Virus record (IMG/VR): IMGVR_UViG_3300046643_000057
Location: 1-56,389 of that record
Reading direction: 5' to 3' (one strand)
Source of the DNA: a virus
DNA length: 56,389 bases
This document shows, one piece after another, positions 6,581 to 34,617 of the stretch (position 1 is the stretch's first letter; the number at the start of each line of letters is the position of its first letter). The notes beneath the pieces were generated by a model. It was not told where the DNA came from, did not search any database, and saw only the letters and a program-made list of their open reading frames with translations. The position numbers were made by a program, and so were the translations under genes.

Positions 6581-6865
6581 CTACAGATGCGGTCCGGTCT
6601 TCGCCACTTTCCAAGGCTTGCCTGTGAGCTTGTCGCGCAGCGTGCCGGTCGTATCCATGCTCGGGTTCGCGTCGGGGTAGCTGTAGTCGGCGACTGCCAA
6701 CTGAGCAGGCGGCGCAGCATCGATGACGCGCTGCGAGCGCATGGCGCCTACGGATTCGCTCATGGTCAGGGTCTGGCCCACGCCTGTTGCCTGATTGCGG
6801 AAGCGCTGCGCATAGGGCCGCGTCGCCTGCACGCCCGAATGGGTGCTCGTGTCACTTGCTTTCAT
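6581..6865 (-). CDS. hypothetical protein between terS and terL
   Basis: Part of ORF 6581..6961. ATG at 6865 is preceded by AAGGGGAA. Translation begins MKASDTSTHSGVQATRPYAQRF. Confidence 0.5.
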   Translation of the reverse strand: MKASDTSTHSGVQATRPYAQRFRNQATGVGQTLTMSESVGAMRSQRVIDAAPPAQLAVADYSYPDANPSMDTTGTLRDKLTGKPWKVAKTGPHL

Positions 6866-7442
6866 CGGTGTTCCCCTTGTCTGCAATGCGCTTGCGCGCG
6901 GTCTTGAGTCGATCAGCGAGGGCAGAGGCCAGCGCGTTGACGCCATCGCCTTCATCGCCAACGAGTTTGAAGTGCTTGGCGAGCGTGCCGAGCGCTGCGT
7001 CCTTGTTGAACCGTTTGATCTTTGCCGTGCGCGTCTCGATCCGCTTCACGACAGGCACCATCTCGCCTGTTGCGAGATCGAGCTCTAGCTCGGTGCTTCG
7101 TTCGAACTTCGATTCATGCTCAATGCCTGCGATGCTCGCCGCAGCGTCATCACTGAGCTCGTGAATCGGGATCAAGTGGCCTTTGTCGTCGAAGACTTGG
7201 CGGATGTCAGCGAAGGCCACGCGGCCGAGCTCAAGCATGACGCGAGCGGCTGTGATGTCGGAGGCTTTGAGCATGGCTTCGTTCAGTTCGCGCACACGCG
7301 CTGCGATCTCTGGCTTCGTGAGTAAACGCGCGCCTGCAAACTTACTCGCATATCCAGACTGAAGCGCGGCGCGCTCTGCGTGGAAACACTGCACATAGCG
7401 GCGCGCGAAAGTCTCGTGCTGTTCATTGCTGAGGCGTGGCAT
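6852..7442 (-). CDS. terS: terminase small subunit (Terminase_2/P27-like)
   Basis: MPRLSNEQHETFARRYVQCFHAERAALQSGYASKFAGARLLTKPEIAARVRELNEAM matches my recollection of the N-terminal HTH region of P27-family small terminases. Located directly upstream of terL. Confidence 0.8.
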   Translation of the reverse strand: MPRLSNEQHETFARRYVQCFHAERAALQSGYASKFAGARLLTKPEIAARVRELNEAMLKASDITAARVMLELGRVAFADIRQVFDDKGHLIPIHELSDDAAASIAGIEHESKFERSTELELDLATGEMVPVVKRIETRTAKIKRFNKDAALGTLAKHFKLVGDEGDGVNALASALADRLKTARKRIADKGNTDESK

Positions 7443-7752
7443 CGAGAGCCTGCAGCATCGGGTTGCGAGCGTGCAAAGCCGCGCGCCGCTTCTCATTCCA
7501 ATCAAGAATGATCTTCTGTATTGCAGCCACGAGACTAGGCATGTTCGTTCGCTCTAGGTCGTCAATGAGCTTCGCGTCGAGCATGTGCTGCGTGAGCGCA
7601 ATCGCGTACTCCTTGGCCGTCTCTTTGGTGTCTGGAATCGGTGCTTGCGAGCGCCACGCAACGGACTTGAATGCGCCACTCGGAAACTGCACGACGAAAC
7701 CGCCGACTGTGTCGTCGCCTGTTGCGCTTTCTGAGGGGAATAGCTTTGCCAT
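7423..7752 (-). CDS. hypothetical protein, first gene of the late operon
   Basis: ORF 7423..7779 with ATG at 7752 (MAKLFPSES...). Sits at the edge of the AT-rich divergent intergenic region. Confidence 0.55.
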   Translation of the reverse strand: MAKLFPSESATGDDTVGGFVVQFPSGAFKSVAWRSQAPIPDTKETAKEYAIALTQHMLDAKLIDDLERTNMPSLVAAIQKIILDWNEKRRAALHARNPMLQALDATPQQ

Positions 7753-7897
7753 AACCGCGACTGTATCGCAGAGCAGCAATAGTGAAAAGGTCTTGAGCGT
7801 GTTTCACATGAAACCTCGATTTCTTATCACTTTTGTTTATGAAAAAATCTTCACAACCCCTTGTGCACCATCCAGAAAACAACCGATAATTCTCTCA

Positions 7898-7915
7898 CTG
7901 TATCAAGTGATACAG
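7898..7915. promoter_or_regulatory. palindromic operator-like site O1 (CTGTATCAAGTGATACAG, perfect)
   Basis: 8-bp inverted arms with a 2-bp spacer, 44 bp upstream of the ATG at 7959. One of six related sites. Confidence 0.6.
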
Positions 7916-10259: not shown

Positions 10260-10392
10260 CTAACTTAGCCTGCACCCTCTGCCCCCTCTTGCAGTGCGTT
10301 TTTCCTATAAGCGTTCCACAGATAGAAAAAGACAATTCATAGAGTCGATATAGGAAAATTGCCCTACATGAGGGGGCAGAGGGTGCAGTTAG
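10260..10392. repeat. nested inverted repeat at the convergence of two operons
   Basis: Outer perfect 19-bp arms at 10270-10288 and 10370-10388 (ctgcaccctctgccccctc / gagggggcagagggtgcag). Inner perfect 10-bp arms at 10300-10309 and 10349-10358 (ttttcctata / tataggaaaa). AT-rich 39-nt centre. Confidence 0.85.
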
Positions 10393-10407: not shown

Positions 10408-13155
10408 CTATTCGGGCAAAAGGCGTAGTCCGTGCACCAAACGCAATTTTTTACGACGGCCTTCACCAAGCGAGGCCTGCGACTCCCGAACCTCGCTCCC
10501 CGGCACCACTCGCAACACTTCATCCATAAAACGAGATTTGGAAATAGCGAAAACCCCGGCGTCCTTGCACCACCTCACGTACTCCGGATAGAGGCCTGCA
10601 TTCGACCCGAGCGACGCGTCCGTGAGAGCTTCGCGGAAGTCATATCCGATTTCGCAGCACTCCCCGACGAACTGCCCCACGCGGTCCTGCTCGCGCTTGT
10701 AGGCGTCGCCTGCAGCACGCACCACGGCCGGCGCCTGCAGCCCTGTCTGCGCCCATTCGATCGCACCCCGCACGCGCCACGCGAGAATCCCCTCTAGCTC
10801 GCTCTGCAGCCTCGCGCCCACACTCATGTCCTTCACCTTGTCCGCAAGACCCGCAGCGACCGCCTCCGTGCTTCCGAAGGTCACGCCATAGGGCACGAGC
10901 AGCACGCGGCGCCAGATGCCGTGATCCTGACCCTTGATCTGCGGCTTGTGGTTCGTGAGCAGTTGCAGCTTGTGCACGGGGCGGAACTCGAAAAAGTCCT
11001 CGCGCATGTGACGCGCCATGAGCTTGTCGCCGCCCGTCGCCTGTTTGATGAAGTCCTCGCGCAGCACGACGTTTTCGCCATGCTCGTGTGCTGTCACCAT
11101 GCGGCGGCCGAAGAGCGAAGCTATCTCGGTAGGGTGCCGGTCGCTCTTCGACGCAGCCATGAGCCCGGGAGCGGCCGTGGTGCCGTATTCGCCCTGCGTG
11201 TCCGCGAGTAGATCGATGATCGTGCTCTTGCCGTTCGATCCGCCACCCCAATGCACCGCGAAGCACTGCTCGCGCGTGTCCCCGGTGAGGCAGTAGCCCG
11301 CCCATCGCTGCAGGAACGCGGCGACTTCGCGCTTCCCCGCGTCCAACCCATCCTCGCCGGTGATCTCGGCCACGACACGCGACCACGTCGGCGCCTGCGC
11401 ATCGGCCTTGTACCGCAGCGGCACGATCTTGGTGATGTAGTCGGCGGGGTCGTGGCGTCGGACCTTGCCTGTCCGCAGGTCGACAACACCGTTCAGGCAA
11501 TTGAGCGCCCACGGGTCGCGATCCAGACTCTCGGCGTCGACGGTGAGCATCTTGCGAGCCAGACCGATCGCAGCCTCGATCGCGCCCTTCATTTCGCTTT
11601 TGAGCGCCCACTTACCGAGCGCCTCCGCGATCGCGCCGAGCTTGGTCGCCTCGGCCTGATCGCCGCGCGCCTCCGCATCTGCGGCCCTGGCTTCGTGAGT
11701 CTTCTTCTCGCCGCGGATGATCTCGGACAAGCGGCACCCGTAGCGGTAGACGTCGGCCTCGTCGGCGACCCACCGCTTGCCGTCCCAGACGTGCCACTTG
11801 CCGGCCGCCACGAGCACGAGCGCGCCGAAACTATCCTTCAGACGCTGCGCGTTCGCTTGGTCCGTCGTGAGGTAGTGCGCCTCCGGAATGCCGCGCCGCT
11901 TGACCGCTGGCAGCTTCACGTCCGGGGGTGGTGGCAGATGCGAGACAAGGGCCATCGATCCGCCGAGCGTGGCGTCGATCGCGGCCGGTGAGGTGAGATC
12001 CGATAAGGGGCTATTACCGGGCGTCATGCTTGCATCGCGAGGTGTGTAAACAGTGCCGATCAATGCCCCGCCGTCGAAGGTTTGTTCGACCCCTACATTA
12101 CCCTCGGGCGCGCCCGGGTCGACGCCGACCCACACCACGGCCGGCACGGGCGGCGCGTTGTCCTCCGCGCTGCAGTCTTCGAAACCATCGGGGATCGGCT
12201 CGTGCCATCCGTACCCCGCGGCCAATCGCTTCAACGATCCGATGCCCTTGACGTTCTCCCGGTCCGACCTGATGAAGGGCCACACGCGGTTATCGAGGAA
12301 ATCGGCATCGTATTTGCCGCTCTTCGCGCTGAAGGCGTGCGCGATCTCGAGACCATCGCCTCCGGTCTCGTGATGGATGATGAAGACGACATCACGCCAC
12401 TGGTCGTAGCCGAGCTCGTCCTTGCCTGTGTTCGGGATCGCGGCCAAGATCGATCGAAGCTCTTCGTGCCCCACGATCTCGCCGAGCCCCTTCGCGACCC
12501 GCACAGGCCTCGCCAAGCGCGGCACGGGCTCGGACAGAGGCCACGCCATGCCGAGCACGTCCTCGCGCGTCCCTGGCACCCAGTCGTCGAGCAGGGGTTC
12601 GAAGACGATCGGGACGGACAAACCCGCGAGAGGCAACACGGCCTGATTGCCGTAGCCACCCTCCGGCACTTCGTTCTGTTTGGGGAATACCTCGATCTCG
12701 CCGGCTGCGACACCGCGCGTGCCGGACTTATAACCACACGATCTAACGGCCGTGTCGAGCCACTGCCTAACGGAATAAGCGTCTTGGGGCGTCTCCCAGA
12801 GGCAATAGACGTGCAGGCCACGGCCACCACTTGAGCGGAACATCACCGGCGCACCACCGAGTAGCTCGATCGATTGCGCGACGGCGGTTGCGGCCGAGAG
12901 CATTGCGGACCATGTCGTTTCGCCTCCGTGCGAGTCGAAGTCGAGCAAACCCACCATCGTCAACGAAGAGCCCGCGGCGATCTGTGAGACGCCACGGGCG
13001 GGGCCCCCGTTCAAGTGCCGCGCGAATCGCTCGGGCGTAAGTGGTTCTTTGGTCCATGCCTGCGTCCCGTCCTGTTTCTTGATGGCTGTCACGTCCGTGC
13101 GGACGCGCGAGATCAGCGGCGCGAGAGCCGCATAGAGCGGATCGTTCGGGTTCAT
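10408..13155 (-). CDS. bifunctional primase-polymerase / D5-like SF3 helicase
   Basis: AEP motifs LLDFDSHGG and GGRGLHVY in the N-terminal third. Walker A HWGGGSNGKST and Walker B-like segment in the C-terminal third. 915 aa. Confidence 0.9.
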   Translation of the reverse strand: MNPNDPLYAALAPLISRVRTDVTAIKKQDGTQAWTKEPLTPERFARHLNGGPARGVSQIAAGSSLTMVGLLDFDSHGGETTWSAMLSAATAVAQSIELLGGAPVMFRSSGGRGLHVYCLWETPQDAYSVRQWLDTAVRSCGYKSGTRGVAAGEIEVFPKQNEVPEGGYGNQAVLPLAGLSVPIVFEPLLDDWVPGTREDVLGMAWPLSEPVPRLARPVRVAKGLGEIVGHEELRSILAAIPNTGKDELGYDQWRDVVFIIHHETGGDGLEIAHAFSAKSGKYDADFLDNRVWPFIRSDRENVKGIGSLKRLAAGYGWHEPIPDGFEDCSAEDNAPPVPAVVWVGVDPGAPEGNVGVEQTFDGGALIGTVYTPRDASMTPGNSPLSDLTSPAAIDATLGGSMALVSHLPPPPDVKLPAVKRRGIPEAHYLTTDQANAQRLKDSFGALVLVAAGKWHVWDGKRWVADEADVYRYGCRLSEIIRGEKKTHEARAADAEARGDQAEATKLGAIAEALGKWALKSEMKGAIEAAIGLARKMLTVDAESLDRDPWALNCLNGVVDLRTGKVRRHDPADYITKIVPLRYKADAQAPTWSRVVAEITGEDGLDAGKREVAAFLQRWAGYCLTGDTREQCFAVHWGGGSNGKSTIIDLLADTQGEYGTTAAPGLMAASKSDRHPTEIASLFGRRMVTAHEHGENVVLREDFIKQATGGDKLMARHMREDFFEFRPVHKLQLLTNHKPQIKGQDHGIWRRVLLVPYGVTFGSTEAVAAGLADKVKDMSVGARLQSELEGILAWRVRGAIEWAQTGLQAPAVVRAAGDAYKREQDRVGQFVGECCEIGYDFREALTDASLGSNAGLYPEYVRWCKDAGVFAISKSRFMDEVLRVVPGSEVRESQASLGEGRRKKLRLVHGLRLLPE

Positions 13156-13528: not shown

Positions 13529-13546
13529 TTGCAGCAAGTGATACAA
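13529..13546. promoter_or_regulatory. operator-like site O6 (degenerate; minus strand reads TTGTATCACTTGCTGCAA)
   Basis: One good half-site and one 5/7 half-site. Lies between the minus-strand terminator and the primase-operon leader. A possible TTGCTG-18-TATGCT promoter overlaps it. Confidence 0.4.
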
Positions 13547-13547
13547 A

Positions 13548-13578
13548 CGAAAAAGCCCACCGTGTTTCCACAGTGGGC
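13548..13578 (-). terminator. rho-independent terminator (minus strand)
   Basis: Minus strand reads gcccactgtg-gaaa-cacggtgggc followed by TTTTTCG. Confidence 0.6.
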
Positions 13579-13728
13579 CTCCCCGAGCCTTGCACCCGAC
13601 ATACACCCCATCAATGTTGCCGCGCCCCAGAGTGCGACTAGGCTCCCGATCACCGATCTCTTGCGCGGGAAGCGATCAGGCCTCTATCCTGTCGGGCTTG
13701 TTTTCACGCACGAGGCCAGTCGCGCGCT

Positions 13729-14416: not shown

Positions 14417-15453
14417 GACTGCTCTCCCGAAGACTTGAGAACAGCGCCCCCAAACCATTCCGAAAGCGCGAATGACGTGATCGACCTGACTTCTTCGTCT
14501 GTCGCCGCTCGCGGCTCTGCGCTGACCCATTCGTCCCCGGTTGCCCAAAACACACGCGCCGATTCGTCGTCGGTCGGTGTCTTGCGCATGAGGGTGACAG
14601 TGCCGTCCAGCGCGTCGGTTTCGTGAATCTCCGAAGGCTCTTGGCTATACGATTGACCTGCCTCGTAGAGGTCGGGAGCGAGCGCGATCAGCGACGCATC
14701 GACTGGCTCGTGTTTGAAGAAACAGCCGTAGCCGGGCTTCAACGTGGCGAACTTGTACGGCTCGCCGCGCACGTCTTCGATATAGCGGTGATTGCGGAGG
14801 CGTCCTGCGACGATGGTGGACTCAAGGCCCCATTGCAAGTGATCGTGAATCATGCTGACGTTCGGAACGCGGTAGCGAGAGTCCCAAACATGCAGGCGCG
14901 TGTTGTCGCTCAAATGAAGTCGCAGCATCCCCATGCCTTGCAGAGACCACTCGAAGGCCGTCGCGTTCTCAAGAATCGCGCGAACCAAGATGCGGCTCAA
15001 TTCTGGCCTTGAAGGGGCAGTCTCCGCAGCGGGTTGCCTCTCAGGGCTGGATGGTTCGATGGGTTCGGCGCGCCAATCGAACGCCGCCCATTCTTCTGCC
15101 AGTGCATCCGGCATGTAGCCTTTGCGGTCGGCCCGATCAAGCGCATCCATCAGGTCACCGAAGTTCTTCACCAGAACAACTGAGAATCCTTCAGGGATTG
15201 GTGCCACCGGCTCTCCAGTGATCGCCCGATCCACGCGGCCAGCCAGCATCCTCGCCAGCTCCTCTGGTGAGAGCGGCTCAAGAATCCCGTAGCTGCTCTC
15301 GCATTCCTTGTTGATGTCGAGTGCCCCCTCACTCAATGCAGTCGCAGCCTCACGCATGACGCGCTGGGCGTCGCCGCTCTTGCTTTTGAGCAGGCCGCAG
15401 TCGTCCATGATCAAGGCAAGCTCCATCAGCCTCTTGGACAGTTGTGTCGTCAT
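14413..15453 (-). CDS. hypothetical protein with C-terminal cupin-like metal-binding motifs
   Basis: 346 aa. ATG at 15453 overlaps the regulator stop. IHDHLQWGLESTIVAG resembles cupin motif 1 (HxH...E...G), and a later ...PSEIHETD supplies a possible second His. Confidence 0.6.
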   Translation of the reverse strand: MTTQLSKRLMELALIMDDCGLLKSKSGDAQRVMREAATALSEGALDINKECESSYGILEPLSPEELARMLAGRVDRAITGEPVAPIPEGFSVVLVKNFGDLMDALDRADRKGYMPDALAEEWAAFDWRAEPIEPSSPERQPAAETAPSRPELSRILVRAILENATAFEWSLQGMGMLRLHLSDNTRLHVWDSRYRVPNVSMIHDHLQWGLESTIVAGRLRNHRYIEDVRGEPYKFATLKPGYGCFFKHEPVDASLIALAPDLYEAGQSYSQEPSEIHETDALDGTVTLMRKTPTDDESARVFWATGDEWVSAEPRAATDEEVRSITSFALSEWFGGAVLKSSGEQS

Positions 15454-15740
15454 GTGAGCTTCGCTTTCATGGCGAACCGAGCGTATTCGCAACTCTGGCA
15501 GGTCGCGCTCAGGTCGGTGCGGTTAATGATCGGGATGATCTGCATCCGGCTCGCGGCTTTCTCGACCCTGATCGCGAGATCGGGGCTGATGTTGCGCCGG
15601 CCTTCCGCATACTGGCGCAATGACGCCTCGGTCGACTTGGCGAGCTTGGCGAAGCGCAGGCGTTGTTTCGGCTCAAGACCGCGCCAGAGCGCCATGAGCT
15701 TCGGGTTCGGTCGCAGCGGTCGGGGTGGTTTCTTTTGCAT
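15450..15740 (-). CDS. small HTH DNA-binding regulator (XRE/Cro-like)
   Basis: Translation MQKKPPRPLRPNPKLMALWRGLEPKQRLRFAKLAKSTEASLRQYAEGRRNISPDLAIRVEKAA. Sits at a divergent promoter region that carries two operator-like palindromes. Confidence 0.65.
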   Translation of the reverse strand: MQKKPPRPLRPNPKLMALWRGLEPKQRLRFAKLAKSTEASLRQYAEGRRNISPDLAIRVEKAASRMQIIPIINRTDLSATCQSCEYARFAMKAKLT

Positions 15741-15748
15741 GCGACGGA

Positions 15749-15766
15749 CTGTATCACTTGACGCAA
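15749..15766. promoter_or_regulatory. operator-like site O2 (CTGTATCACTTGACGCAA)
   Basis: Lies 9 bp upstream of the regulator ATG (minus strand). Overlaps a plus-strand TTGACG -35 hexamer at 15758-15763. Confidence 0.5.
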
Positions 15767-15793
15767 GGCATGCGCAACCATTACGATTCATCC

Positions 15794-15868
15794 GCGCCGG
15801 TGCTCTCACCTCCCTTACTCCCTGATCCGGCGCCTTCCGACCCGTGGTTTTGCGACCACGGGTTTTTC
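15794..15868 (+). ncRNA. candidate small RNA or leader-attenuator (about 75 nt)
   Basis: Putative promoter TTGACG(15758)-18 nt-TACGAT(15782). Hairpin gcgccgg/ccggcgc has a loop tgctctCACCTCCCttaCTCCCtgat (anti-SD-like). A terminator hairpin follows at 15841-15868. Confidence 0.3.
15841..15868 (+). terminator. rho-independent terminator-like hairpin inside the divergent region
   Basis: cccgtggt-tttgcg-accacggg followed by TTTTTCTTT. There is no plus-strand CDS upstream. Confidence 0.55.
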
Positions 15869-15880
15869 TTTCGAAAAGTG

Positions 15881-15909
15881 TTGACAAGCTCGTATCAAGT
15901 GATACACAC
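15881..15909 (+). promoter_or_regulatory. sigma70-like promoter with operator-like site O3 (TCGTATCAAGTGATACAC at 15890-15907)
   Basis: Consensus TTGACA at 15881-15886. The palindrome occupies the spacer and -10 region. Lies 36 bp upstream of the ATG at 15945. Confidence 0.55.
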
Positions 15910-15944
15910 TGACCGCTCACCTTTTCAACCAAACGGAATTCATC

Positions 15945-16277
15945 ATGTCCAAGCAAACCATCAAGCTCGCCGAGGCGCTGTTGCGCCGCAAGGAACTCCA
16001 AGGCAAGGTCGACGTCCTGAAGCAGATCAAGGACAAGGACATGTTCGAAGTCAAGGCAAGCCGCAAGAAGGTCACCGAAGACTTGGACGATGTCGTCGCG
16101 GCTGTGCCCAAGCTCACGGCCTCGCAGTTCACGGCCGAATACGATTGGCACGCCAAGCAGTTGCGCCTGATCGATGCGGCCATCCAGCAAACGAACTGGA
16201 CGGCCGAGATCACGATCGATCACGATGTGATGGCCGAGTACAGCGACCGCACGGCGGCGCCGAAGACCCCGGCCTGA
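15945..16277 (+). CDS. DIP1984/septicolysin-like family protein (short version)
   Basis: The N-terminal KLAEALLRRKELQGKVDVL and C-terminal KQLRLIDAAIQQTNWTAEI match the conserved ends of that family as I remember them. Confidence 0.6.
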   Translation: MSKQTIKLAEALLRRKELQGKVDVLKQIKDKDMFEVKASRKKVTEDLDDVVAAVPKLTASQFTAEYDWHAKQLRLIDAAIQQTNWTAEITIDHDVMAEYSDRTAAPKTPA

Positions 16278-16598
16278 CGACCTTCACGCGGGTTTGAAAA
16301 GCTGCATGCTGCGATCGGGGAAAGGCTCGCTTCCGTGCCTCTAAACGGTAAGGTGTTGCGCGACACCGCTAGCAAACTTGATCTGTATCGATTAACGGCG
16401 TGATTCGGGATTCACATTAAACGCCCGGGGAACTTCGACTAAGAGAAACGTGAACAGCGAAGCTCCGATTGACCGATTACGATCACACGAGAACCTCCGA
16501 CTGAGAGACGCGCCGACTAACCACCCCCGAGGGCGTGCAGCCCTTCAAACCCGCGAGAAGACCCTTTGAAATCCACCACGAAGAAAGCGATACACGTT

Positions 16599-17012
16599 AT
16601 GCCCAAGATCACAATCTCCGTCGAATACGACAACACCGAAGACGCGATCCTCGGTCTCTCGGCCCTCCGTGGCGGCGACAACGTCGCGAAGCCCGTCACG
16701 AAGGAAACCACCAAGCCGGGAAAGTCTGTCGAGAAGACGGACAGCCCTGCGGCTACCAAGCCCGATGCGGCGAAACCGGGCGGTGCGCCCGAGGGCGGTA
16801 CTTCGACGGCCGCATCGTCCGGTGAAGGCGGCATCAGCTATGACACGGTGACGGCCAAGATCAAGGCCGCCGTCGAGACGCATCGCCCGCAGGTCATCGA
16901 GACCCTGACGGCCTTCGAAGCGAAGAGCGGCAAGGACCTGAAGCCGAAGGACTACGCTGCGTTCCTGCAGAAGCTCGAACAGGCCACCGCGCCCGCTGAA
17001 GACCTGGGCTAA
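16599..17012 (+). CDS. hypothetical protein with low-complexity centre
   Basis: ATG at 16599 within ORF 16566..17012. A terminator follows. Confidence 0.55.
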   Translation: MPKITISVEYDNTEDAILGLSALRGGDNVAKPVTKETTKPGKSVEKTDSPAATKPDAAKPGGAPEGGTSTAASSGEGGISYDTVTAKIKAAVETHRPQVIETLTAFEAKSGKDLKPKDYAAFLQKLEQATAPAEDLG

Positions 17013-24159: not shown

Positions 24160-24467
24160 GCACCGCGATTGAAATCCGCTTGAAGATGATCGCGGCTCGC
24201 GTACTCGAGTCGCCTGCACGCAAGCGATGGGAAGCGCACTTCGAAGAGATTCACCGGCGAGCGCTGATGATCATTTTGTGGCGCGTCTACTGTCTTGAGA
24301 TCGTAGATCAAGGACAGCGCCTGCTCACGATGCACGAGCACGACTTCGAATTCGTCGATGATTCTTTCAGCCACGAGTACGGAACTGAACAGATTTTCTA
24401 CTTCCAATGCGCGTGCGGTGAGACACGCGAATGCGAGCCGGGAGATTTTCACGAATTCGACGATTGA
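24156..24467 (+). CDS. hypothetical protein (103 aa)
   Basis: Coupled ORF with a C-terminal CACGETREC segment. Confidence 0.55.
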   Translation: MSTAIEIRLKMIAARVLESPARKRWEAHFEEIHRRALMIILWRVYCLEIVDQGQRLLTMHEHDFEFVDDSFSHEYGTEQIFYFQCACGETRECEPGDFHEFDD

Positions 24468-24493
24468 CTCTGTATCACTTGATACGTTAGGAT
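24464..24493 (+). promoter_or_regulatory. sigma70-like promoter with operator-like site O4 (CTGTATCACTTGATACGT at 24470-24487)
   Basis: TTGACT at 24464-24469, an 18-nt spacer filled by the palindrome, and TAGGAT at 24488-24493. The ATG at 24500 follows. Confidence 0.6.
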
Positions 24494-24499
24494 GACGAC

Positions 24500-25171
24500 A
24501 TGCTGATCGACACATGCTCATGGGATCACCCCGGCGCCGATGCCTACACAGGTTCGGCGACTGCCGCGATCTACGCGATGGCGCCCGACATTCCGGTCCG
24601 CGTCAAGCGCGTGTTCGCCGAGAGGGCCGAGCGTCACGAGGTCGACGACGTGGTCTACATCGACCGCGATTCGATCCGCGGCAAGTACGCCTACGAGCCC
24701 GAGATCAGTTTCATGGCGTTCGGCAGCAAGGGCCGAATCTGCGCCAACGTCACCCGCAACAAGTGGAGCCCCGACCATGTCGAATCGGCGATCGTCATCT
24801 GCGAGCAAGGGTGGTGCGTGGCCCGGCCCTCTGTTTGCAACAACTGGTCCCTCGTCACTCGACACGAGCCTGCCGGCCCTGCGGCCCCTCCGGTCGCTCT
24901 TCTCGCACCTCCTGAAGCCTTCGGCCCTCCTGCGTCCGAAGTCGGAGCACCCGGGCCTACCCCCTTGCTTCTGCGCGACGTGCCGCTCGAGGCGCAGCCG
25001 GGAGAAGGTGACGGACCATCCGCGCCTCTCGTGCGCGGACCTGTGTTTCTGTCCGGTCTGCCTGTTCTTGTCGAGCCCGTGACGCCGGTCCCTGAGCCCA
25101 CGGTGCTCTGGCTGATGATCGTGGGTCTCGTCGCAATCGCATGGAAAGTGGGCAAGCGCTATGACCGATGA
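24500..25171 (+). CDS. PEP-CTERM sorting-domain protein (MHFG-family-like)
   Basis: The C-terminus VPEPTVLWLMIVGLVAIAWKVGKRYDR has a PEP motif, a TM helix and a basic cluster. The N-terminal domain CSWDHPGADAYTG...ISFMAFGSKGRICANVTRNKW...CEQGWCVARPSVCNN resembles the MHFG family as I recall it. Confidence 0.75.
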   Translation: MLIDTCSWDHPGADAYTGSATAAIYAMAPDIPVRVKRVFAERAERHEVDDVVYIDRDSIRGKYAYEPEISFMAFGSKGRICANVTRNKWSPDHVESAIVICEQGWCVARPSVCNNWSLVTRHEPAGPAAPPVALLAPPEAFGPPASEVGAPGPTPLLLRDVPLEAQPGEGDGPSAPLVRGPVFLSGLPVLVEPVTPVPEPTVLWLMIVGLVAIAWKVGKRYDR

Positions 25172-25424
25172 CGACAAGATCAAGGCCGCGCGCAAGGCGC
25201 TCCGCAAGATCGCGAACATGAGCGAAGGCGTCGTGAAGACGACCGCACTCGATGCCCTCACGATCCTCGGCCATCGCGAGAAGTTCCGGCAGACCACCGC
25301 GCTCGACCGCCGCCATGTCCTCGAGCGCACCGACCTATCGGTGATCGAGGTCGCAGCAATGCTCGGTCTGAGCGAGAACGTGGTGCGCAAGATTCGGTCG
25401 GACGCTTGGGGACGGCGTCTGTGA
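25161..25424 (+). CDS. small HTH protein
   Basis: C-terminal LSVIEVAAMLGLSENVVRKIRSD is helix-turn-helix-like. Confidence 0.6.
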   Translation: MTDDDKIKAARKALRKIANMSEGVVKTTALDALTILGHREKFRQTTALDRRHVLERTDLSVIEVAAMLGLSENVVRKIRSDAWGRRL

Positions 25425-26156: not shown

Positions 26157-26476
26157 CGAAGACAATCAAAGAAGGCGACATCCGCAAGGCGCTCAAGGCG
26201 CGAGTCGAAGTCTACGGCGGCGAGATTCGCGCTGTGTCCTGGCTCGGTCGTAGCAACGCGCCGGACGTGCTTGCGCTCTTTCCGACTGATTCGCGCTACT
26301 ACCAGAAGATCGGTGCGTTCCCCCCGTACATGCACCCCTTCGTCGAGACAAAACGACCCGGCAAAGCCGCGACCGAAGCGCAGGCCCGCGAGCATGAGCG
26401 CATGCGTGAGGCCGGGTGTGTGGTGCTCGTAATCACAACGATCGAGGAACTGGACGCATGGCTGCCGCCGCTGTGA
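26153..26476 (+). CDS. VRR-NUC domain nuclease
   Basis: ATG at 26153 within ORF 25868..26476. Contains PDVLALFP...PFVETKRPGKAATEAQAREHERMREAGCVVLVI (D...ExK core). Confidence 0.75.
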   Translation: MTKTIKEGDIRKALKARVEVYGGEIRAVSWLGRSNAPDVLALFPTDSRYYQKIGAFPPYMHPFVETKRPGKAATEAQAREHERMREAGCVVLVITTIEELDAWLPPL

Positions 26477-26682
26477 AGGCTTACGACGACCCGGAGGCTT
26501 TGCATGCTCACGGGCCTATGGAGCACAGTCTCTGCGGTCTAGCATGTGACGCATTTTCGTCCGGTGACGTTGACTATCTGCCTCGATACGCGGGCCCGAC
26601 AAACACTGTCAGTTGCGACCAATGCTTGAGCATGATCGAGCACGTTTATTCCGGTTTCACCCGAGCAGGCCGTGTCAAGTGA
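26458..26682 (+). CDS. small Cys-rich hypothetical protein (74 aa)
   Basis: ATG at 26458 within ORF 26416..26682. Contains CGLACD...CDQC. Confidence 0.45.
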   Translation: MAAAAVKAYDDPEALHAHGPMEHSLCGLACDAFSSGDVDYLPRYAGPTNTVSCDQCLSMIEHVYSGFTRAGRVK

Positions 26683-28124: not shown

Positions 28125-28341
28125 ATTTCACCTTTGGTCGAAAGACAACCTCGTGAAGTTTGCCGAGGAGGCGACCGTCGTGCTCATCCAGAAAGACGCG
28201 CGGATCGTGCAACTCGAAAAAGACCTAAAAGTTGTAAAAGAGGCTTGGCGTCAAGCGGTATCAAGTGATACAGTTCACGAATGGACAGCATCACCCCCAC
28301 ACAGTACGCAGCCGGTTTCCTCGCCTTCGCGTTCATCGTGA
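28117..28341 (+). CDS. hypothetical coiled-coil protein (74 aa)
   Basis: ATG at 28117 overlaps the helicase stop. The C-terminal part runs across operator O5 and the next gene start, so the true end is uncertain. Confidence 0.45.
   Translation: MAEFHLWSKDNLVKFAEEATVVLIQKDARIVQLEKDLKVVKEAWRQAVSSDTVHEWTASPPHSTQPVSSPSRSS
28256..28273. promoter_or_regulatory. operator-like site O5 (CGGTATCAAGTGATACAG)
   Basis: Ends 7 bp upstream of the ATG at 28281, the first gene of the GT/MTase module. A possible TTGGCG-18-TACAGT promoter overlaps it. Confidence 0.5.
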
Positions 28342-28478
28342 TTGGCCTCCTGGCTTGGGCCTGCCACAAGGCACCCGAAGCACCACCGGATGAGTTTTTC
28401 TTCAGCGACAGCGATATCGATGAGGCCTACGCCGACACGATCCCTGCCGACTTCGCAGACACACGGCCGCCACGATGA
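28281..28478 (+). CDS. small membrane protein (65 aa)
   Basis: One TM segment (YAAGFLAFAFIVIGLLAWAC) and an acidic tail. Its stop overlaps the next ATG. Confidence 0.55.
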   Translation: MDSITPTQYAAGFLAFAFIVIGLLAWACHKAPEAPPDEFFFSDSDIDEAYADTIPADFADTRPPR

Positions 28479-29059
28479 AAACCGCGATCGTGCTCGCGAG
28501 CGGGCCGAGCCTCACGATGGAGCAGGTCGATGCCGCGAAGGCGTCCGGTCACTTCACAATCGTCGTGAATTCGACCTACGAGATTTTCCCGACTGCGGAC
28601 GTTCTCTATGCAGGCGACTTCTTGTGGTGGAAGAGCAAGATCGCCGACGCGCGCAAGACCTTCAAGGGTGCGATGTGGACGCAAGACTCGAGCACCGCGG
28701 CCCGCTGGCCGGACGTGAAGCGCATGCGCGGCACGAACCGCGAAGGGCTCGGCAAAGAGGTGATCCACAACAACGGCAACAGTGGCGTGCAGGCGATCAA
28801 TCTCGCCTATCTGTGGGGTTACCGGCGCATCATCCTGCTCGGCTTCGACATGAAGCTCGGACCGAAGGGCGAGCGTCACCACCACGCCGACCACCCTCAC
28901 CCGATGGTGCAGCAGCAGACGTTTTCCGAGTGGCTGCACAAGCTCGAATTCTTCGCCAAGGACATCAAAGCTGTTGGCGTCGAAGTCATCAACTGCACGC
29001 CGGGGAGCGCGATGCGCTGCTTCGCCATGAAGCCCTGGCAGGAGGTGCTCTGTGCCTGA
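28475..29059 (+). CDS. MAF/CstII-like (DUF115, MptE-like fold) putative glycosyltransferase
   Basis: IVLASGPSL near the N-terminus and NNGNSGVQAINLAYLWGYRRIILLGFDM later match the Rossmann-like motifs I recall from PF01973 proteins (motility-associated factors, GT42 sialyltransferases). Confidence 0.6.
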   Translation: MKTAIVLASGPSLTMEQVDAAKASGHFTIVVNSTYEIFPTADVLYAGDFLWWKSKIADARKTFKGAMWTQDSSTAARWPDVKRMRGTNREGLGKEVIHNNGNSGVQAINLAYLWGYRRIILLGFDMKLGPKGERHHHADHPHPMVQQQTFSEWLHKLEFFAKDIKAVGVEVINCTPGSAMRCFAMKPWQEVLCA

Positions 29060-29306
29060 CGAAATCTTCTGCGCGGGCGGCTGCAAAAAGAGCCTACCCG
29101 ACACCAAGGCGGCCGAGGACGCCGGGTGGTCGTTCCTTCACATCACCGGCCGCTATCGTTGTGGTGAGTGCGAGCGCCGGCTGCGGTGGGCCTCGACGGT
29201 CGAAGGCTCTGCACCGCGCAACGAGCCTGACAAGCTGCCGCCCGACTCGATCGGCGCGCTCAAGGCGCTGCCTAAGCGCGAACCACTGAAGGAGAAGGTG
29301 CGATGA
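29052..29306 (+). CDS. zinc-ribbon-like small protein
   Basis: CAGGC...CGEC Cys pairs. Overlaps both neighbours. Confidence 0.5.
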   Translation: MPDEIFCAGGCKKSLPDTKAAEDAGWSFLHITGRYRCGECERRLRWASTVEGSAPRNEPDKLPPDSIGALKALPKREPLKEKVR

Positions 29307-29515
29307 ACCCTGACAACACGCTTTCGGCGATGGACCTGCTAGCTGTTCTCATCGCCAAATTCGGCGGTGAATCGATGGAAGTCACGATCACGCAGGTCGA
29401 CATCGCCAAAGCCTCGGGCTGCGTGATGTTGAACGGTGTGACGAAGGAGGGCGCTCTTGCCTTGAAACTGGTCACGCACATGCAGTTCAAAACGATGGTC
29501 CCCGACGCGCCATGA
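29303..29515 (+). CDS. hypothetical protein (70 aa)
   Basis: ATGA-coupled ORF. Confidence 0.5.
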   Translation: MNPDNTLSAMDLLAVLIAKFGGESMEVTITQVDIAKASGCVMLNGVTKEGALALKLVTHMQFKTMVPDAP

Positions 29516-29751
29516 GCAAGAGCCACAATCTCAAGACACTGCCGCGGTACTACGAGCCGGCTGCGTTGGGCTTGAAAACTTTCGAAGTTCGAAAGAACGA
29601 TCGCAATTTCAAGGTGGGTGACAGCGTCACCCTCAAAGAGTGGACCGGGGCTGTGTTCACCGGCCGAAATCTCGGAGTTTTCGAGATCACTTATATCCTT
29701 GACGACTTCGAAGGGCTCGCGCCCGGTTACGTCGTATTGGGTTTGCAATGA
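29512..29751 (+). CDS. DUF3850 / ASCH-like (PUA-fold) protein
   Basis: HNLKTLPRYYEPAALGLKTFEVRKNDRNFKVGDSVTLKEW matches the DUF3850 pattern (H.LK..P.yF..v..G.K.fEiRkNDRdf.vGD). Confidence 0.7.
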   Translation: MSKSHNLKTLPRYYEPAALGLKTFEVRKNDRNFKVGDSVTLKEWTGAVFTGRNLGVFEITYILDDFEGLAPGYVVLGLQ

Positions 29752-30497
29752 GAGCCGTTCTCCGCATCAGGAAAGAGCCTCACTACCGCCGACTTGCGTT
29801 CGAGCTCGGTCTGAAGAAAGTCGGTTTTCATCTCACCGAGATACCCCGGCCCGCTGACGCGTCCGACTGGCTCGTGCTGTGGAACCGGCAGGGCGCCGGA
29901 GAGCTCGAGGCCGATCTGTGGGAGAAGCAAGGCGGCACTGTGATCGTCTGCGAGAACGGGTATCTGCAGAAGCTCGACAAGACCTACTACGCGATCAGCG
30001 TGCACGGCCACAACGGGTCGGGGTGGTTTCCGGTCGACGACAGCGAAGAGCGATTCGAGAAGCTCGGTTTCGAATTGATGTCTTGGTCAGGCGATGGGGA
30101 CTACGACTTGATTTGCGGGCAACGCGGCATCGGCAGCCGCACGATGAAGAGCCCGCCGCAGTGGGCCGAGAAGCGCGCGAAGGAACTGCAAGCGCGCGGC
30201 AAGGCGACGAAGCTGCGCCAGCATCCCGGCAACTTCGTGCCTAAGGTGCCGCTTACGCGCGATCTCGAGGGCGCCGCGGCTTGCCATGTCTGGTCGAGCG
30301 CGGCCGGTGTGCGTGCACTCGTCGAAGGTGTTCCGGTCTATCACAGTGCGCCGCATTGGATTTGCGCCGGTGCCGGACCTGTCTCGCGCGGCATGATTCT
30401 CAACCGCATGGCGCACGGTCAATGGCACCACGAGGAGATCGCCACAGGCGAGCCCTTCGCGCGCATCATCGCCAATCGGAGCAAAGCGACATGGTAA
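29748..30497 (+). CDS. putative glycosyltransferase (GT-B-like, capsule KpsS/KpsC-like features)
   Basis: 249 aa. VIVCENGYLQKLDKTYYAISVHGHNG and a C-terminal HVWSSAAGVRALVEGVPVY nucleotide-sugar-side motif. Weak, motif-level only. Confidence 0.45.
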   Translation: MRAVLRIRKEPHYRRLAFELGLKKVGFHLTEIPRPADASDWLVLWNRQGAGELEADLWEKQGGTVIVCENGYLQKLDKTYYAISVHGHNGSGWFPVDDSEERFEKLGFELMSWSGDGDYDLICGQRGIGSRTMKSPPQWAEKRAKELQARGKATKLRQHPGNFVPKVPLTRDLEGAAACHVWSSAAGVRALVEGVPVYHSAPHWICAGAGPVSRGMILNRMAHGQWHHEEIATGEPFARIIANRSKATW

Positions 30498-31201
30498 CGA
30501 TGCACCCGGTCGCCGGCAAAGAGAAGAGCCGCATGCTCTGCCAAGCCTTCGCCGATGGCTGCCCGGCTGACGCGAAGGGTCATGTCTTCTACGGCGTCGA
30601 CAAGTCGAATCTCGATACCTTCAATCGTGTCAGGGCGAGCGGTGAGGACTGGTACTACGTCGACAACAGTTTTTTCGATAAGGTCCGCGGCCTGCAGTTT
30701 CGCGTCGCCAAGAACCGAATTCAAACGAAGGTGCACGGGCAGGCGATCGTCGACTTTTCCCGCTTCGAAAAGCTCCATATCCCGACGCGGCCGATGCGCG
30801 ATGACGATAAGGGTTGCGTGCTCATGGTCGAGCAATCCGAGAGCTTCATGCGCGAGATCGCGTGTGATCCATCTTGGTTCTACCGCACGATGAACGAGGT
30901 CAGCAAAGGCCCGTTTGCCGACCGCAAGATCAAGCTGCGCAAGTGGGATCGGAACAAGGAGAAGCAGCAGGCCACGCTCGTGAGCGACCTGCAGGGCGCC
31001 GCGCTCGTCGTGACGCACTCCTCAGCCGCCGCGGTGACCGCGTTTGCGCAGGGTGTGCCGATCATCGTCTCGCCGATGTCCTCGCTTCACGGCACGTCGG
31101 CAGCCGAAAGACTGCACACCTTCGGCGTCCTCGCAGAGAATCAGTGGTCCCCCTCACAGATGCGCAATGGAGACGCTTGGCAATGGTTCAACAAAAACTA
31201 G
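30491..31201 (+). CDS. putative glycosyltransferase, distant paralogue of 29748..30497
   Basis: 236 aa. WYYVDNSFFDKVRGLQFRVAKN and VVTHSSAAAVTAFAQGVPIIV parallel the neighbour's motifs. Confidence 0.4.
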   Translation: MVTMHPVAGKEKSRMLCQAFADGCPADAKGHVFYGVDKSNLDTFNRVRASGEDWYYVDNSFFDKVRGLQFRVAKNRIQTKVHGQAIVDFSRFEKLHIPTRPMRDDDKGCVLMVEQSESFMREIACDPSWFYRTMNEVSKGPFADRKIKLRKWDRNKEKQQATLVSDLQGAALVVTHSSAAAVTAFAQGVPIIVSPMSSLHGTSAAERLHTFGVLAENQWSPSQMRNGDAWQWFNKN

Positions 31202-31734
31202 GCTGGTTCAACACGGCCGGCAGGCCGGGCGACCGCACGCTCAAAGATCAACTCGTCGGACTCGACACCCTGATCGCCCGTGTGTCCGGCAAGACGGTGC
31301 TCGACGTCGGATGCGCCGAAGGTCTGATCTCGCTGCAACTCTTCGACGAAGGCGCCGTAGCGGTCCACGGCGTCGAGATCGTGCAGGGCCATGTCGACGT
31401 CGCCAACAAGTTGCGCGGCGATCGTGCGTGCACCTTCGAACAGGGCGACGCCGACCACTTCATGCCCAAGCGTCAATACGACATCGTGATCATGCTGGCG
31501 CTGTTGCAGAAGCTCAGGAATCCGACGATGGCTTGCCGCAAGTTCGCGGCCGCGGCGCGCGAACTGGTGGTGCTCCGCTTGCCACCGCGCGGCGATCCGC
31601 TCATGCTTGTGGATCAGCGCAGCGGCTACATCGAGCACGACATCCGTGAAGCGATGCTCGGCAGCGGCTTCGTGCTCGCTGACGTTGTCTCCGGTCACCT
31701 CGGCGAGCACATCAGCTATTGGGAACGCAAATGA
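31183..31734 (+). CDS. class I SAM-dependent methyltransferase
   Basis: Motif I VLDVGCAEGLISLQL, followed by VHGVEI and IVIMLALLQKL. Confidence 0.7.
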   Translation: MVQQKLGWFNTAGRPGDRTLKDQLVGLDTLIARVSGKTVLDVGCAEGLISLQLFDEGAVAVHGVEIVQGHVDVANKLRGDRACTFEQGDADHFMPKRQYDIVIMLALLQKLRNPTMACRKFAAAARELVVLRLPPRGDPLMLVDQRSGYIEHDIREAMLGSGFVLADVVSGHLGEHISYWERK

Positions 31735-32252
31735 ATGACCTGATCCCGCTTTACCGCGACATGGCCGCAGGCGGCGCGCAGTTCCTTGGCCTGAGCGTGC
31801 TGCAGCACAAAGAGCAGATCGGAAAGCTCTTCAAGCGGCACGACGTGCACACGCTGCTCGACTTCGGGTGCGGTGCCGGCAACGCCTACAAGACGGCCAA
31901 CAAGGTGCACCACGAATGGCGTCTGCGCCGCATCGACGTGACGCTCTACGATCCGGCCTTCCCGCAGCACGACAAGCTGCCGACGCCCGGCCGCAAGTTC
32001 GACGCGGTGATCTGCAGCGACGTGCTCGAGCATGTGCCCGAGGAGGAGACGCTTGCTTTCATCGAAGGCCTCTTCAGCCGCGCCAAGCGTCTCGTGTGGG
32101 CGAGCGTGTGCTGCAGGCCGGCGCGCAAGAGCTTCCCCGATGGCCGCAATCTGCACGTCACGATCCGTCCGTGGCAGTGGTGGGACGACACCTTCAACGA
32201 GGTTGCGCGCCGCCACCCCGACGTCACCTACGCGCTCGTCGAGACGCCCTGA
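31731..32252 (+). CDS. class I SAM-dependent methyltransferase
   Basis: Motif I LLDFGCGAGNAY, followed by FDAVICSDVLEHVPEEE. Confidence 0.7.
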   Translation: MNDLIPLYRDMAAGGAQFLGLSVLQHKEQIGKLFKRHDVHTLLDFGCGAGNAYKTANKVHHEWRLRRIDVTLYDPAFPQHDKLPTPGRKFDAVICSDVLEHVPEEETLAFIEGLFSRAKRLVWASVCCRPARKSFPDGRNLHVTIRPWQWWDDTFNEVARRHPDVTYALVETP

Positions 32253-32254
32253 TC

Positions 32255-32995
32255 GTGGGCATCGGAGATCAACTCATGGCGGCCGGCGAAGCGCGTCGTC
32301 TGCACAAAACGCACGGCCGCCCGGTGATGATCGTCGACCGCGCCGGGCGGCCGCAGAAGAGCGATCTGTGGACCGGTATTCCCTACATCACGCAGAGCCA
32401 CGTCGGCGGCCCGATGCGGTTGCTCAACTGCTCCGGCGTTCGACCCTATATCGCCGGCAAGACGTCGAGCAAATGGACGTGGCGCCACTTCAAGCCGACG
32501 CCGGCCGAGATCGTCTTCACGGCCGAGGAGCTCGTCTTCGCTGCACCGTTTCGTGACAAGGTGATGATCGAGCCCAACGTCAAGAACATCGGCCACACGA
32601 ACAAGGCGTGGTTCGGTGACCGATGGCTCGCTCTGTCCGAGACGCGGCAGGACTTCGTGCAGTGCGTCTCGGACCCATCGCAGTCACTGCCGCACAACGT
32701 GCTCAAGGTCATCACCCCGACGTTTCGCCACGCGCTTGCCATACTCTCGGTGAGCCGCGCTTTCGTCAGCACAGAGGGTGGTCTCATGCACGGCGCCGCA
32801 GCGACGCGCACGCCGGCTGTGATTCTCTGGTCCGAGTTCATCGCGCCTGAGATCACCGGCTACGAGACCATGACGAACCTGCGCCACGCCGGCAAGCCTT
32901 GCGGCAACCGCATGAATTGCCCCGGCTGCAGGACGTCGATGGAAGCGATTTCAGTCACCGAAGTGAGCGATGCGCTCGAAAGGATTCTCAAATGA
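32255..32995 (+). CDS. GT9-like (heptosyltransferase family) glycosyltransferase, short form
   Basis: GIGDQLMAAGEARRL at the N-terminus and FVSTEGGLMHGAAATRTPAVILW near the C-terminus resemble GT9 signatures. GTG at 32255 lies just after the upstream stop. Confidence 0.6.
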   Translation: MGIGDQLMAAGEARRLHKTHGRPVMIVDRAGRPQKSDLWTGIPYITQSHVGGPMRLLNCSGVRPYIAGKTSSKWTWRHFKPTPAEIVFTAEELVFAAPFRDKVMIEPNVKNIGHTNKAWFGDRWLALSETRQDFVQCVSDPSQSLPHNVLKVITPTFRHALAILSVSRAFVSTEGGLMHGAAATRTPAVILWSEFIAPEITGYETMTNLRHAGKPCGNRMNCPGCRTSMEAISVTEVSDALERILK

Positions 32996-34615: not shown

Positions 34616-34617
34616 TC

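Follow-up and report, generated by a model that had tools for sequence, protein, structure and literature searches.

A 56,389-nucleotide stretch of viral DNA (IMG/VR virus record IMGVR_UViG_3300046643_000057, positions 1 to 56,389; the whole stretch is called the window here) carries six copies of an 18-bp palindrome, which begin at positions 7898, 13529, 15749, 15890, 24470 and 28256. These palindromes are probably the operators of the phage's own 96-amino acid (aa) helix-turn-helix (HTH) protein of the Cro/YdaS type, which would repress early and middle promoters through them; the probability of this reading is put at roughly 0.68. Taken together, palindromes and protein are most likely a Cro/YdaS-type repressor-operator system with a dispersed regulon, that is, a conventional gene switch. 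An initial annotation of the window had suggested a dimeric HTH regulon with palindromic operators at the heads of transcription units, and the conserved positions of the palindromes, their co-occurrence with the protein, and the covariation of operator and recognition helix all argue for that suggestion.

The palindrome and its placement

The palindrome is confirmed as a real and conserved element. A search of the window with CTGTATCANNTGATACAG, allowing up to three mismatches, returns five matches, with 0.04 expected from dinucleotide shuffles, and none of 100 such shuffles reaches five. The copy at 7898-7915, annotated as a perfect palindrome, has no mismatch and heads the search; the copies at 28256, 24470, 15749, and 15890 have one, two, three, and three mismatches, respectively. 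In a position weight matrix (PWM) made as a symmetrised half-site model, the six sites score 31.4, 28.2, 27.3, 25.9, 23.5, and 20.5 bits. The lowest of these scores belongs to the site at 13529, which reaches it despite its absence from the training set. The next best position in the window scores 10.8 bits, and the top score in 30 shuffles has a mean of 11.0 and a maximum of 19.3 bits. The initial annotation had called for a motif-model scan of placement and had named an equal frequency in coding regions as a refutation. In the scan, all six sites lie outside called genes, which has a chance of about 1e-5 (by arithmetic) given a non-coding share of 14.5% by the gene calls made here, and no coding position rises above the shuffle background, so that the annotation is not refuted by this test.

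Two details of the annotation stand only in part. Lone half-sites (CTGTATCG) are present at 7761 and 16383 as described, but as full sites they score at most 6.0 bits, and the one at 7761 is not kept as a half-site in relatives; both were rejected as operators on these grounds. The statement that the late operon has no site is correct for its interior, but the site at 7898 lies in a divergent spacer that the late operon shares.

Position of the sites relative to promoters

Promoters were assigned as consensus matches to sigma-70-like hexamers, read from the sequence. The putative operators are named A to F in order of position (Table 1). Operator A begins 7 nt past the -10 of the putative DUF932 promoter, at about +1 to +18. 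Operator B heads the leftward primase operon directly after an intrinsic terminator and covers the -35-like TTGCTG of a possible promoter. Operators C and D bracket the spacer 15741-15944. The former overlaps the putative promoter of the cro-like gene, in which the -10 (15753-15748) is followed by 7 nt and ATG 15740, and also the -35 of a divergent short-transcript promoter; the latter occupies the spacer and -10 of the putative rightward promoter of the replication operon, behind which lie gene 15945-16277 (DIP1984/DUF6847-like) and the downstream replication genes. Operator E is exactly the 18-nt spacer between TTGACT (24464-24469) and TAGGAT (24488-24493), and TAGGAT stands 6 nt before ATG 24500 of a 223-aa protein with a PEP-CTERM motif, where it could alternatively be a ribosome-binding site. 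Operator F overlaps the putative promoter TTGGCG (28245-28250)-18-TG-A-TACAGT (28269-28274), which ends 6 nt before ATG 28281, and heads a module of MptE-like, DUF3850, and methyltransferase genes. The two sites that had been placed at TTGAC(A/T) promoters are indeed found there, with TTGACA (15881-15886) adjoining D and TTGACT adjoining E.

Table 1. Coordinates of the putative operators, promoters, terminators, and regulator gene in the window
Feature	Position	Strand	Sequence or elements	Basis or context
Putative operator A	7898..7915		Perfect palindrome CTGTATCAAGTGATACAG	Pattern search and PWM; divergent spacer between late operon (leftward, ATG 7752) and DUF932 operon (rightward, ATG 7959)
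Putative operator B, degenerate	13529..13546		Reads TTGTATCACTTGCTGCAA on - strand	PWM, 20.5 bits
Putative operator C	15749..15766		Reads TTGCGTCAAGTGATACAG on - strand, degenerate left half	Pattern search and PWM
Putative operator D	15890..15907		TCGTATCAAGTGATACAC	Pattern search and PWM
Putative operator E	24470..24487		CTGTATCACTTGATACGT	Pattern search and PWM
Putative operator F	28256..28273		CGGTATCAAGTGATACAG	Pattern search and PWM
Cro-like regulator gene	15450..15740	-	96 aa, HTH	Proposed operator-binding repressor
Putative DUF932 promoter	7861..7890	+	-35 TTGTGC 7861-7866, 18 nt, -10 GATAAT 7885-7890	
Possible primase-operon promoter		-	TTGCTG 13537-13532, 18 nt, TATGCT 13513-13508	Read from sequence
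Putative cro-like-gene promoter	15748..15776	-	-35-like TGCGCA 15776-15771, 17 nt, extended -10 TG-A-TACAGT	
Putative rightward promoter	15881..15908	+	TTGACA 15881-15886, 16 nt, TG-A-TACACA (-10 15903-15908)	
Predicted intrinsic terminator	13548..13585	-	17-pair stem and T-run	Best terminator-like match
Predicted intrinsic terminator	15839..15864	+	Fold -33 kcal/mol, z = -6.0	Between operators C and D

Conservation in related loci

The relatives compared are metagenomic loci (given L-numbers), most of which were retrieved through the Cro-like protein itself; its homologues in viral contigs were gathered by alignment-based searches. The palindrome is found at the same four genome positions in relatives. 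A scan of IMG/VR viral contigs for the perfect palindrome gave 81 matches, one of them in a true relative (L050), and the other 80 look like chance. The proteins of L050 are 70-78% identical to those of the window, and all 18 bases of the palindrome are identical at the same spot, with the first late gene on one side and the DUF932 gene on the other, forming an island of identity in an otherwise diverged and rearranged spacer with an inserted small open reading frame (ORF). Variants occupy the operator A spot in L082, L083, L084, L085, L111, and L115, and the sequences at this spot in DUF932 relatives other than L050 are TTGTATCGGGTGATACAG, TTGCAGCAATTGCTACAG, AGTAGCAAGTGCTACT, and GATAGCAAATGCTACC; the copies in L111 and L115, at the head of the late/early divergent spacer, match site 7898. 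The DUF932 -10 GATAAT is kept in L083 and L111, and TTGCGC-17-TAAAGT is present at the position of this promoter in L050 and L082. An extra small ORF between operator A and the DUF932 gene, which the window does not have, occurs in L050 (about 330-590), L082 (2750-2960), and L084 (2750-2960), and in all three the operator and upstream promoter are in place despite the insertion.

Two related palindromes bracket the divergent control region in every locus with the regulator gene first in its operon, and this two-site layout is seen in about 20 homologous loci. One of the pair adjoins a TTGAC(A/G) -35 directed toward the replication operon, and every relative with this control region has such a site at the operator D position. 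The other, which corresponds to operator C, directly precedes the regulator ATG; L114 has the same 18-mer here, and those of L293, L294, and L119 are nearly the same, with a distance to the ATG of 5-7 nt in every case. The order of terminator, operator, and primase found at site 13529 recurs in L116 (7000), L123 (5461), and L291, in each of which a hairpin equivalent to the terminator at 13548-13585 precedes the site. Equivalents of site 28256 stand before the homologous MptE-like gene in L298 (CGGTATCAACTGATACAC plus T, then 10 nt and ATG) and L295 (GATAGCACGTGATACAGT, then 7 nt and ATG). Relatives of the PEP-CTERM gene downstream of operator E were looked for and not found, which leaves site 24470 without a comparison. 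A search based on the primase yielded one distant locus.

The shared core is the 14-bp GTATC-N4-GATAC, with A preferred after C (38 of 50 half-sites). Among 25 distinct 18-mers with the exact core, GTATC is present in all 50 half-sites, a pyrimidine is preferred before G, and the center is free; the outer CT...AG and central AAGT are particular to the window. The exact core occurs in 13 of the 15 loci that encode a homologue with LRQY(A/V)EGRR, at 1-4 copies per locus versus 0.0005-0.024 expected, but it has no occurrence in 12 loci (about 150 kb) whose homologues have a different helix.

The Cro/YdaS-type protein

The recognition helix of the 96-aa protein is at about residues 38-45 (EASLRQYA). 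In the JGI annotation an 81-aa version is named a YdaS/Cro-superfamily regulator; the N-terminus MxKKP.RPNPKLLALW is kept in homologues from ATG 15740, and therefore the shorter JGI start is ruled out. A longer form from ATG 15791 was also rejected, since all homologues start at MxKKP... and L114 has no start codon after the equivalent purine-rich tract. The AlphaFold2 model (pLDDT 80, at least five helices) is predicted to be an XRE-type helical bundle, with the best fold matches in the PDB to YdaS of prophage CP-933P (8c7k and 8co2; probability 1.00, TM 0.65-0.80) and further matches to the N-terminal domain of lambda cI, ClgR, C.AhdI, and HigA. Profile matches are to HigA (E = 0.005) and YdaS and are weak. 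Fold and profile matches agree in pointing to a small HTH protein of lambda-repressor-like fold. The sequence threshold of the YdaS family (PF15943 / COG4197) is not reached; family members have sub-threshold matches to HTH_3 and YdaS_toxin, one of the latter with 16.6 bits against a cut-off of 30. On sequence and model, the protein would be best described as belonging to a divergent, uncurated sister group of the YdaS family. The family is a small one: of 1.84 billion clusters, 280 have representatives that match at E ≤ 1e-3, and 37 still do so at E ≤ 1e-10. Every aligned homologue shares with the protein an invariant motif C81-x2-C84, which lies in a C-terminal extension that YdaS and Cro do not have; that two cysteines per monomer form an intersubunit Zn(Cys)4 site holding the dimer is speculative.

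Evidence on the binding protein

Covariation with the operators is the weightiest argument for this protein as binder. Homologues with the helix SLRQY(A/V)EGRR, down to 47-57% identity, keep GTATC cores (L115, L116, L119, L120, L121, L124, and L125). The L291 protein is 66% identical to that of the window and has the helix SLRLNVEGRR, in which LRQY has become LRLN; its operators at the same three positions are GGAGC-AAGT-GCTAC, GTATC-ACTT-GCTAC, and GTAGC-AAGT-GCTGC. Homologues with LRH- or LKH- helices go with GTAGC/GCTAC-type sites. The covariation is a qualitative pattern together with L291, the operators of distant homologues being too degenerate to call objectively. An altered recognition helix accompanied by altered operators points to the phage protein as the binder, and the evidence is good, although not conclusive because exceptions exist (L112, L113, and L163) and the lineages are few.

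Several observations weigh against assigning the palindromes to this protein. The relatives amount to few independent lineages, and co-occurrence is tested in one direction only, because most of the relatives were retrieved through the protein itself. Operator and promoter would be fused, with a half-site serving as the predicted -10, and the conservation of the right half-site is therefore partly inflated by this role. In L112 and L113, which have an LRQY homologue, only a half-site and a disrupted site are seen, and L163 (LRQV) has mixed GTAGC/GATAC sites, so that the correlation of Q43 with T is not absolute. The 96-aa protein passes no Pfam or NCBIfam threshold (Pfam E ≤ 0.01), and its Foldseek E-values are weak (0.02-0.07), though the probability is 1.00. 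Lastly, a conserved 137-aa protein encoded in the 16599-17012 region, divergently from the control region, is always found beside that region, with homologues (P0008-P0010) adjoining it in L111, L112, L114, L116, L120, L122, and L291.

It is improbable that this 137-aa protein, or the 87-aa protein encoded at 25161-25424, binds the palindromes instead. For the 137-aa protein neither a family nor a PDB match was found, nor any recognisable DNA-binding motif; judged from sequence, it seems to be a short N-terminal and a small C-terminal segment joined by a long Pro/Ala/Lys-rich linker. The 87-aa protein had been annotated as a candidate binder beside the protein at 15450-15740; it has sub-threshold matches to HTH_23 and HTH_Tnp_ISL3, but was rejected since these are its only HTH matches and it is absent from L111, L115, and L116, all of which keep the operators. 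Neither protein accounts for the link between operator and Cro-like helix, which favors the candidate at 15450-15740, and Pfam scans, which cover about 60 of the approximately 65 called genes, gave no further HTH regulator. A host transcription factor, LexA-like or another global regulator, would tie the early promoters of the phage to host physiology. The sequence CTGTAT...ATACAG resembles the ends of the SOS box bound by LexA in beta/gamma-proteobacteria, CTGT-N8-ACAG, and host-factor sites on phage early promoters are known, reportedly including Spo0A sites on those of phage phi29. The spacing in the window is CTGT-N10-ACAG rather than N8, however, and the outer CTGT/ACAG varies over 25 related sites (GCGTATC..., CGGTATC...) while the inner GTATC/GATAC is kept; a LexA box was rejected on both counts. 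The operator sequence also shifts between close phages in step with the phage protein. Nor is the 18-mer enriched in any plausible host among the 120 matches listed from 185,579 species' genomes, which are scattered over unrelated, mostly low-GC taxa and include a Rickettsiales repeat. Because the operator tracks the phage protein, the LexA-like outer bases vary, and no host enrichment is seen among the matches listed, a host factor is unlikely as binder and has only a slim chance of being correct.

Probable effect on transcription

Relative to the sigma-70-like hexamers, the sites lie on the -35, the spacer, the -10, or +1. All six positions are occlusive, and repression is therefore the parsimonious and likely effect of binding. 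The initial annotation had allowed for a repressor or an activator; the overlap with core elements favors the former and disfavors the latter. There is some chance, a small one, that the same Cro-like protein has the opposite or a dual effect and switches middle genes on, activating promoters with a poor -35 or an 18-nt spacer (E, F, and C) in a MerR-type or class II manner. Weak -35 sequences (TTGGCG, TGCGCA) or long 18-nt spacers exactly filled by the palindrome would suit activation, and lambda CI and PaaR2 each repress and activate from adjacent operators (PMC8630535). The centers of the sites, however, are at about -16 to -21 or +9 and not at -41.5 or -61.5, the extended -10 elements remove the need for a -35 or an activator, and at the DUF932 operator, past the -10, hindrance of transcription is the sole option. 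The Cro-like protein is not MerR-like, the spacers have 16-18 nt and not the 19-20 bp of MerR-type operators, and Pfam scans of the genome found no MerR-family protein. It is highly improbable that there is no dedicated regulator, the palindrome being an extended -10 (TGnTACAGT) plus a -35-like TTGATA with symmetry from back-to-back divergent promoters. The right half with one further base is indeed TGATACAGT, found 5-10 nt before the ATG in three window genes and many relatives, and at some sites a -35 (TTGTAT, TTGACG) comes from the left half. Promoter elements would not account for two exact halves (GTATC in 50 of 50 half-sites) even where there is a gene in one direction only (E, F, and B), nor for the DUF932 promoter, where the entire palindrome is downstream of the -10. 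Where relatives differ at the fourth base, the two halves change alike (GTAGC...GCTAC), as would be expected of the half-sites of a dimer but not of promoter hexamers.

With repression by the Cro-like protein as the likely case, the following scheme is proposed, in which binding, dimerisation, promoters, start sites, order of occupancy, and sign of regulation are all inferred from sequence. Early synthesis of the protein would depend on the promoter in which the right half of operator C doubles as the extended -10 (TGATACAGT), and the mRNA would probably be leaderless. Its dimer would recognise GTATC-N4-GATAC. The four best palindromes are on other units and the two half-degenerate ones on the regulator's own unit, which suggests that the other units are shut off first and that autorepression comes later. 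The near-perfect operators A, D, E, and F would be bound first, blocking RNA polymerase at +1, spacer, or -10 and shutting off the DUF932, replication, PEP-CTERM, and modification units. Half-degenerate C, on the regulator's own promoter, and B, on the primase operon, would be bound later; the primase operon may be the regulator's own transcription unit continued past the terminator, and the result would be delayed negative autoregulation. Since neither a CI partner nor lysogeny genes turned up among the genes scanned, the phage looks virulent, and its circuit looks like one in which early and middle transcription are shut off in time in the manner of Cro.

Predicted leaderless genes and a candidate small RNA

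The right half-site plus one base, TG-A-TACAGT, has the form of an extended -10; the cro-like gene and ORF 28281 have it 6-7 nt upstream of their start codons. The half-site at 7761 is CGATACAGT, with a -10-like TACAGT 7 nt before the true ATG (7752) of the first late gene. The first genes at 15740(-), 28281(+), 24500(+), and 7752(-) all have a -10-like TAnnnT, often as an extended -10 (TGnTACAGT), 5-10 nt upstream and no Shine-Dalgarno sequence. The geometry TAnnnT-N5-10-ATG occurs in about 20 related loci, where the element is TG(A/C)TACA(G/T)T or GATACT, and the lack of a Shine-Dalgarno sequence extends to L111, L114, L115, L119, L120, L295, and others. A -10 only 5-10 nt before the ATG leads to the prediction of leaderless mRNAs, which suggests that these are common in this phage lineage. 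The cro-like gene in particular, with an extended -10 from the operator half and 7 nt to its ATG, would have no untranslated leader; the mRNA of lambda cI is the classic example of a leaderless phage regulator mRNA.

Between operators C and D there is a candidate small RNA or attenuator, 15758-15872(+), with a predicted transcript of about 78 nt (15794-15871). Its putative promoter, TTGACG-18-TACGAT (15758-15787), has the -35 inside operator C, and the short transcript would end at the terminator 15839-15864. The predicted fold (-33 kcal/mol, z = -6.0) has the stem GCGCCGG/CCGGCGC followed by the intrinsic terminator, and the loop leaves CACCUCCCUUACUCCCU exposed, a sequence similar to the anti-Shine-Dalgarno 3' end of 16S rRNA. 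A CU-rich tract with a terminator is present at the equivalent place in L114, L291, L293, L127, L128, L136, L138, and L165; it was looked for and not found in L115, L116, L120, and L124. The terminator has a compensatory stem change in L114 and equivalent hairpins in the other seven loci. The candidate RNA has a weak Rfam match to Burkholderia anti-hemB (E = 0.076).

Comparison with known systems

Dispersed-operator regulons in phages include the operators of P1 C1, the conserved inverted repeats bound by the phiC31 c repressor, and the stoperators of L5 gp71. The regulators of P1, phiC31, and L5 serve temperate phages as maintenance repressors, and their sites in P1 and L5 lack symmetry. The window is similar to these in having one phage regulator with many short intergenic sites heading early units; in contrast, its sites are only six and symmetric, and the phage looks virulent. 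Likeness to the LexA SOS box (outer CTGT...ACAG and TA-rich shoulders of the perfect site 7898) is superficial, given the N10 spacing and the variable outer bases beside GTATC/GATAC invariant over 25 sites.

The closest parallels are with YdaS/PaaR2 of prophage CP-933P and lambda Cro at OR, which also have a small XRE-type HTH protein. Palindromic 14-18-bp operators over core promoter elements, here predicted ones, and several operators next to the regulator gene, in its divergent control region, are found in the window as in Cro/CI-type systems, but an antagonistic CI-type repressor with a lysogeny module is not among the genes scanned. YdaS is an experimentally shown Cro analogue with footprints on 18-bp palindromes overlapping PRM and PR (PMC8630535). 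The window resembles CP-933P in having 18-bp palindromes over two divergent promoters, here putative, beside the regulator gene and graded site quality, with the weaker site on the regulator's own promoter (PMC8630535). In contrast to CP-933P and lambda, the Pfam and genome searches gave neither a CI/PaaR2 partner nor CII/YdaT, an integrase, or prophage copies, and four more operators are dispersed over 20 kb. The operator is GTATC-N4-GATAC rather than GTTTAGTAA-type repeats, and the protein differs from YdaS and Cro in its extra C-terminal helix region with the invariant CxxC and in a similarity below Pfam thresholds.

Although the kind of mechanism is itself textbook, a Cro-type protein that acts on its own as a global timer and needs no lysogeny module would be of interest, and six operators with their promoters, regulator, and specificity-determining residue pair give a testable regulatory map of an uncultured phage lineage. 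The operator and helix variants offer a clean system for the evolution of HTH specificity, and the natural pairs (GTATC with LRQY; GTAGC/GCTAC with LRLN, LRH, and LKH) an orthogonal repressor-operator set for synthetic circuits. A wider proposal is tentative and, taken with all its parts, rather doubtful: that SU10-like, apparently virulent podophages seen only in metagenomes run the whole early-to-middle programme with one CI-less Cro-type protein, with operators fused to promoters (a half-site as extended -10, leaderless genes), a specificity re-set at least once via two helix residues, and an operator-controlled small RNA of about 78 nt with an exposed, CU-rich loop that mimics the anti-Shine-Dalgarno end of 16S rRNA. 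If this were true, the small RNA would add a translational arm to the switch.

The phage genome and other features

The first 127 positions of the window are identical to its last 127 (56263-56389), and therefore the window is a complete genome, either assembled as a circle or terminally redundant, with a length of about 56,262 bp and a GC content of 62%. The genome encodes SU10-type portal and adaptor proteins, lysozyme, a small terminase (6852-7505(-)), a DUF932 protein, a DUF2800 nuclease, an Enc34-type single-stranded DNA-binding protein, an SNF2 helicase, a D5_N/AEP primase (10408-13155(-)), a family-A polymerase that shares about 49% identity with the Bordetella phage BPP-1 enzyme, and a methyltransferase-rich module. 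The late genes are one long leftward operon that runs from ATG 7752 across the contig junction. Relatives of the polymerase and terminase are only 42-49% identical, no nucleotide-level relative was found among 50,697 phage records when two 10-kb stretches were compared with them by megablast, and tblastn against the same records found no relative of the Cro-like protein in isolate phages. Pfam scans of about 60 of the roughly 65 called genes detected no integrase, recombinase, S24 peptidase/CI, or partition gene. A relative of the Cro-like protein was also not found in the 185,579 species' genomes, and the hypothesis of a prophage was rejected for this reason. The phage appears to be virulent, with an SU10-like structural module.

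The module behind operator F (28281-34794(+)) has MptE-like and DUF3850 proteins, three to four SAM-methyltransferase-like proteins (one FkbM-type), and unknowns, and is possibly a cassette for modifying DNA or nucleotides that the same regulator controls. An Rfam scan of 7000-30000 found nothing at gathering score. A 119-nt near-perfect hairpin at 10270-10388 (19-bp GC-rich outer stem, -68 kcal/mol, z = -12.7) sits where the DUF932 and primase operons converge, in a gap of 757 nt that holds no genes, and has a sub-threshold Rfam match (E = 1e-5) to MIR1120, a MITE-derived family; possible identities are a terminator that works in both directions, an origin, and a small mobile inverted-repeat element. 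The rightward early/middle region has gene-free stretches at 16278-16565 (288 nt) and 26157-26612 (456 nt) with neither an operator nor an Rfam match, the first of which holds the non-significant half-site at 16383 and a TTGACC hexamer. Outside phages, exact CTGTATCANNTGATACAG is present on many contigs of a few metagenome-assembled genomes labelled Rickettsiales or Rickettsia typhi (L178, L182, L186, L193, L201, L203, L209-L211, L213, L214, L216, L221, L222, L224, L229, L230, L234, and L235), where it looks like an unrelated dispersed palindromic repeat.

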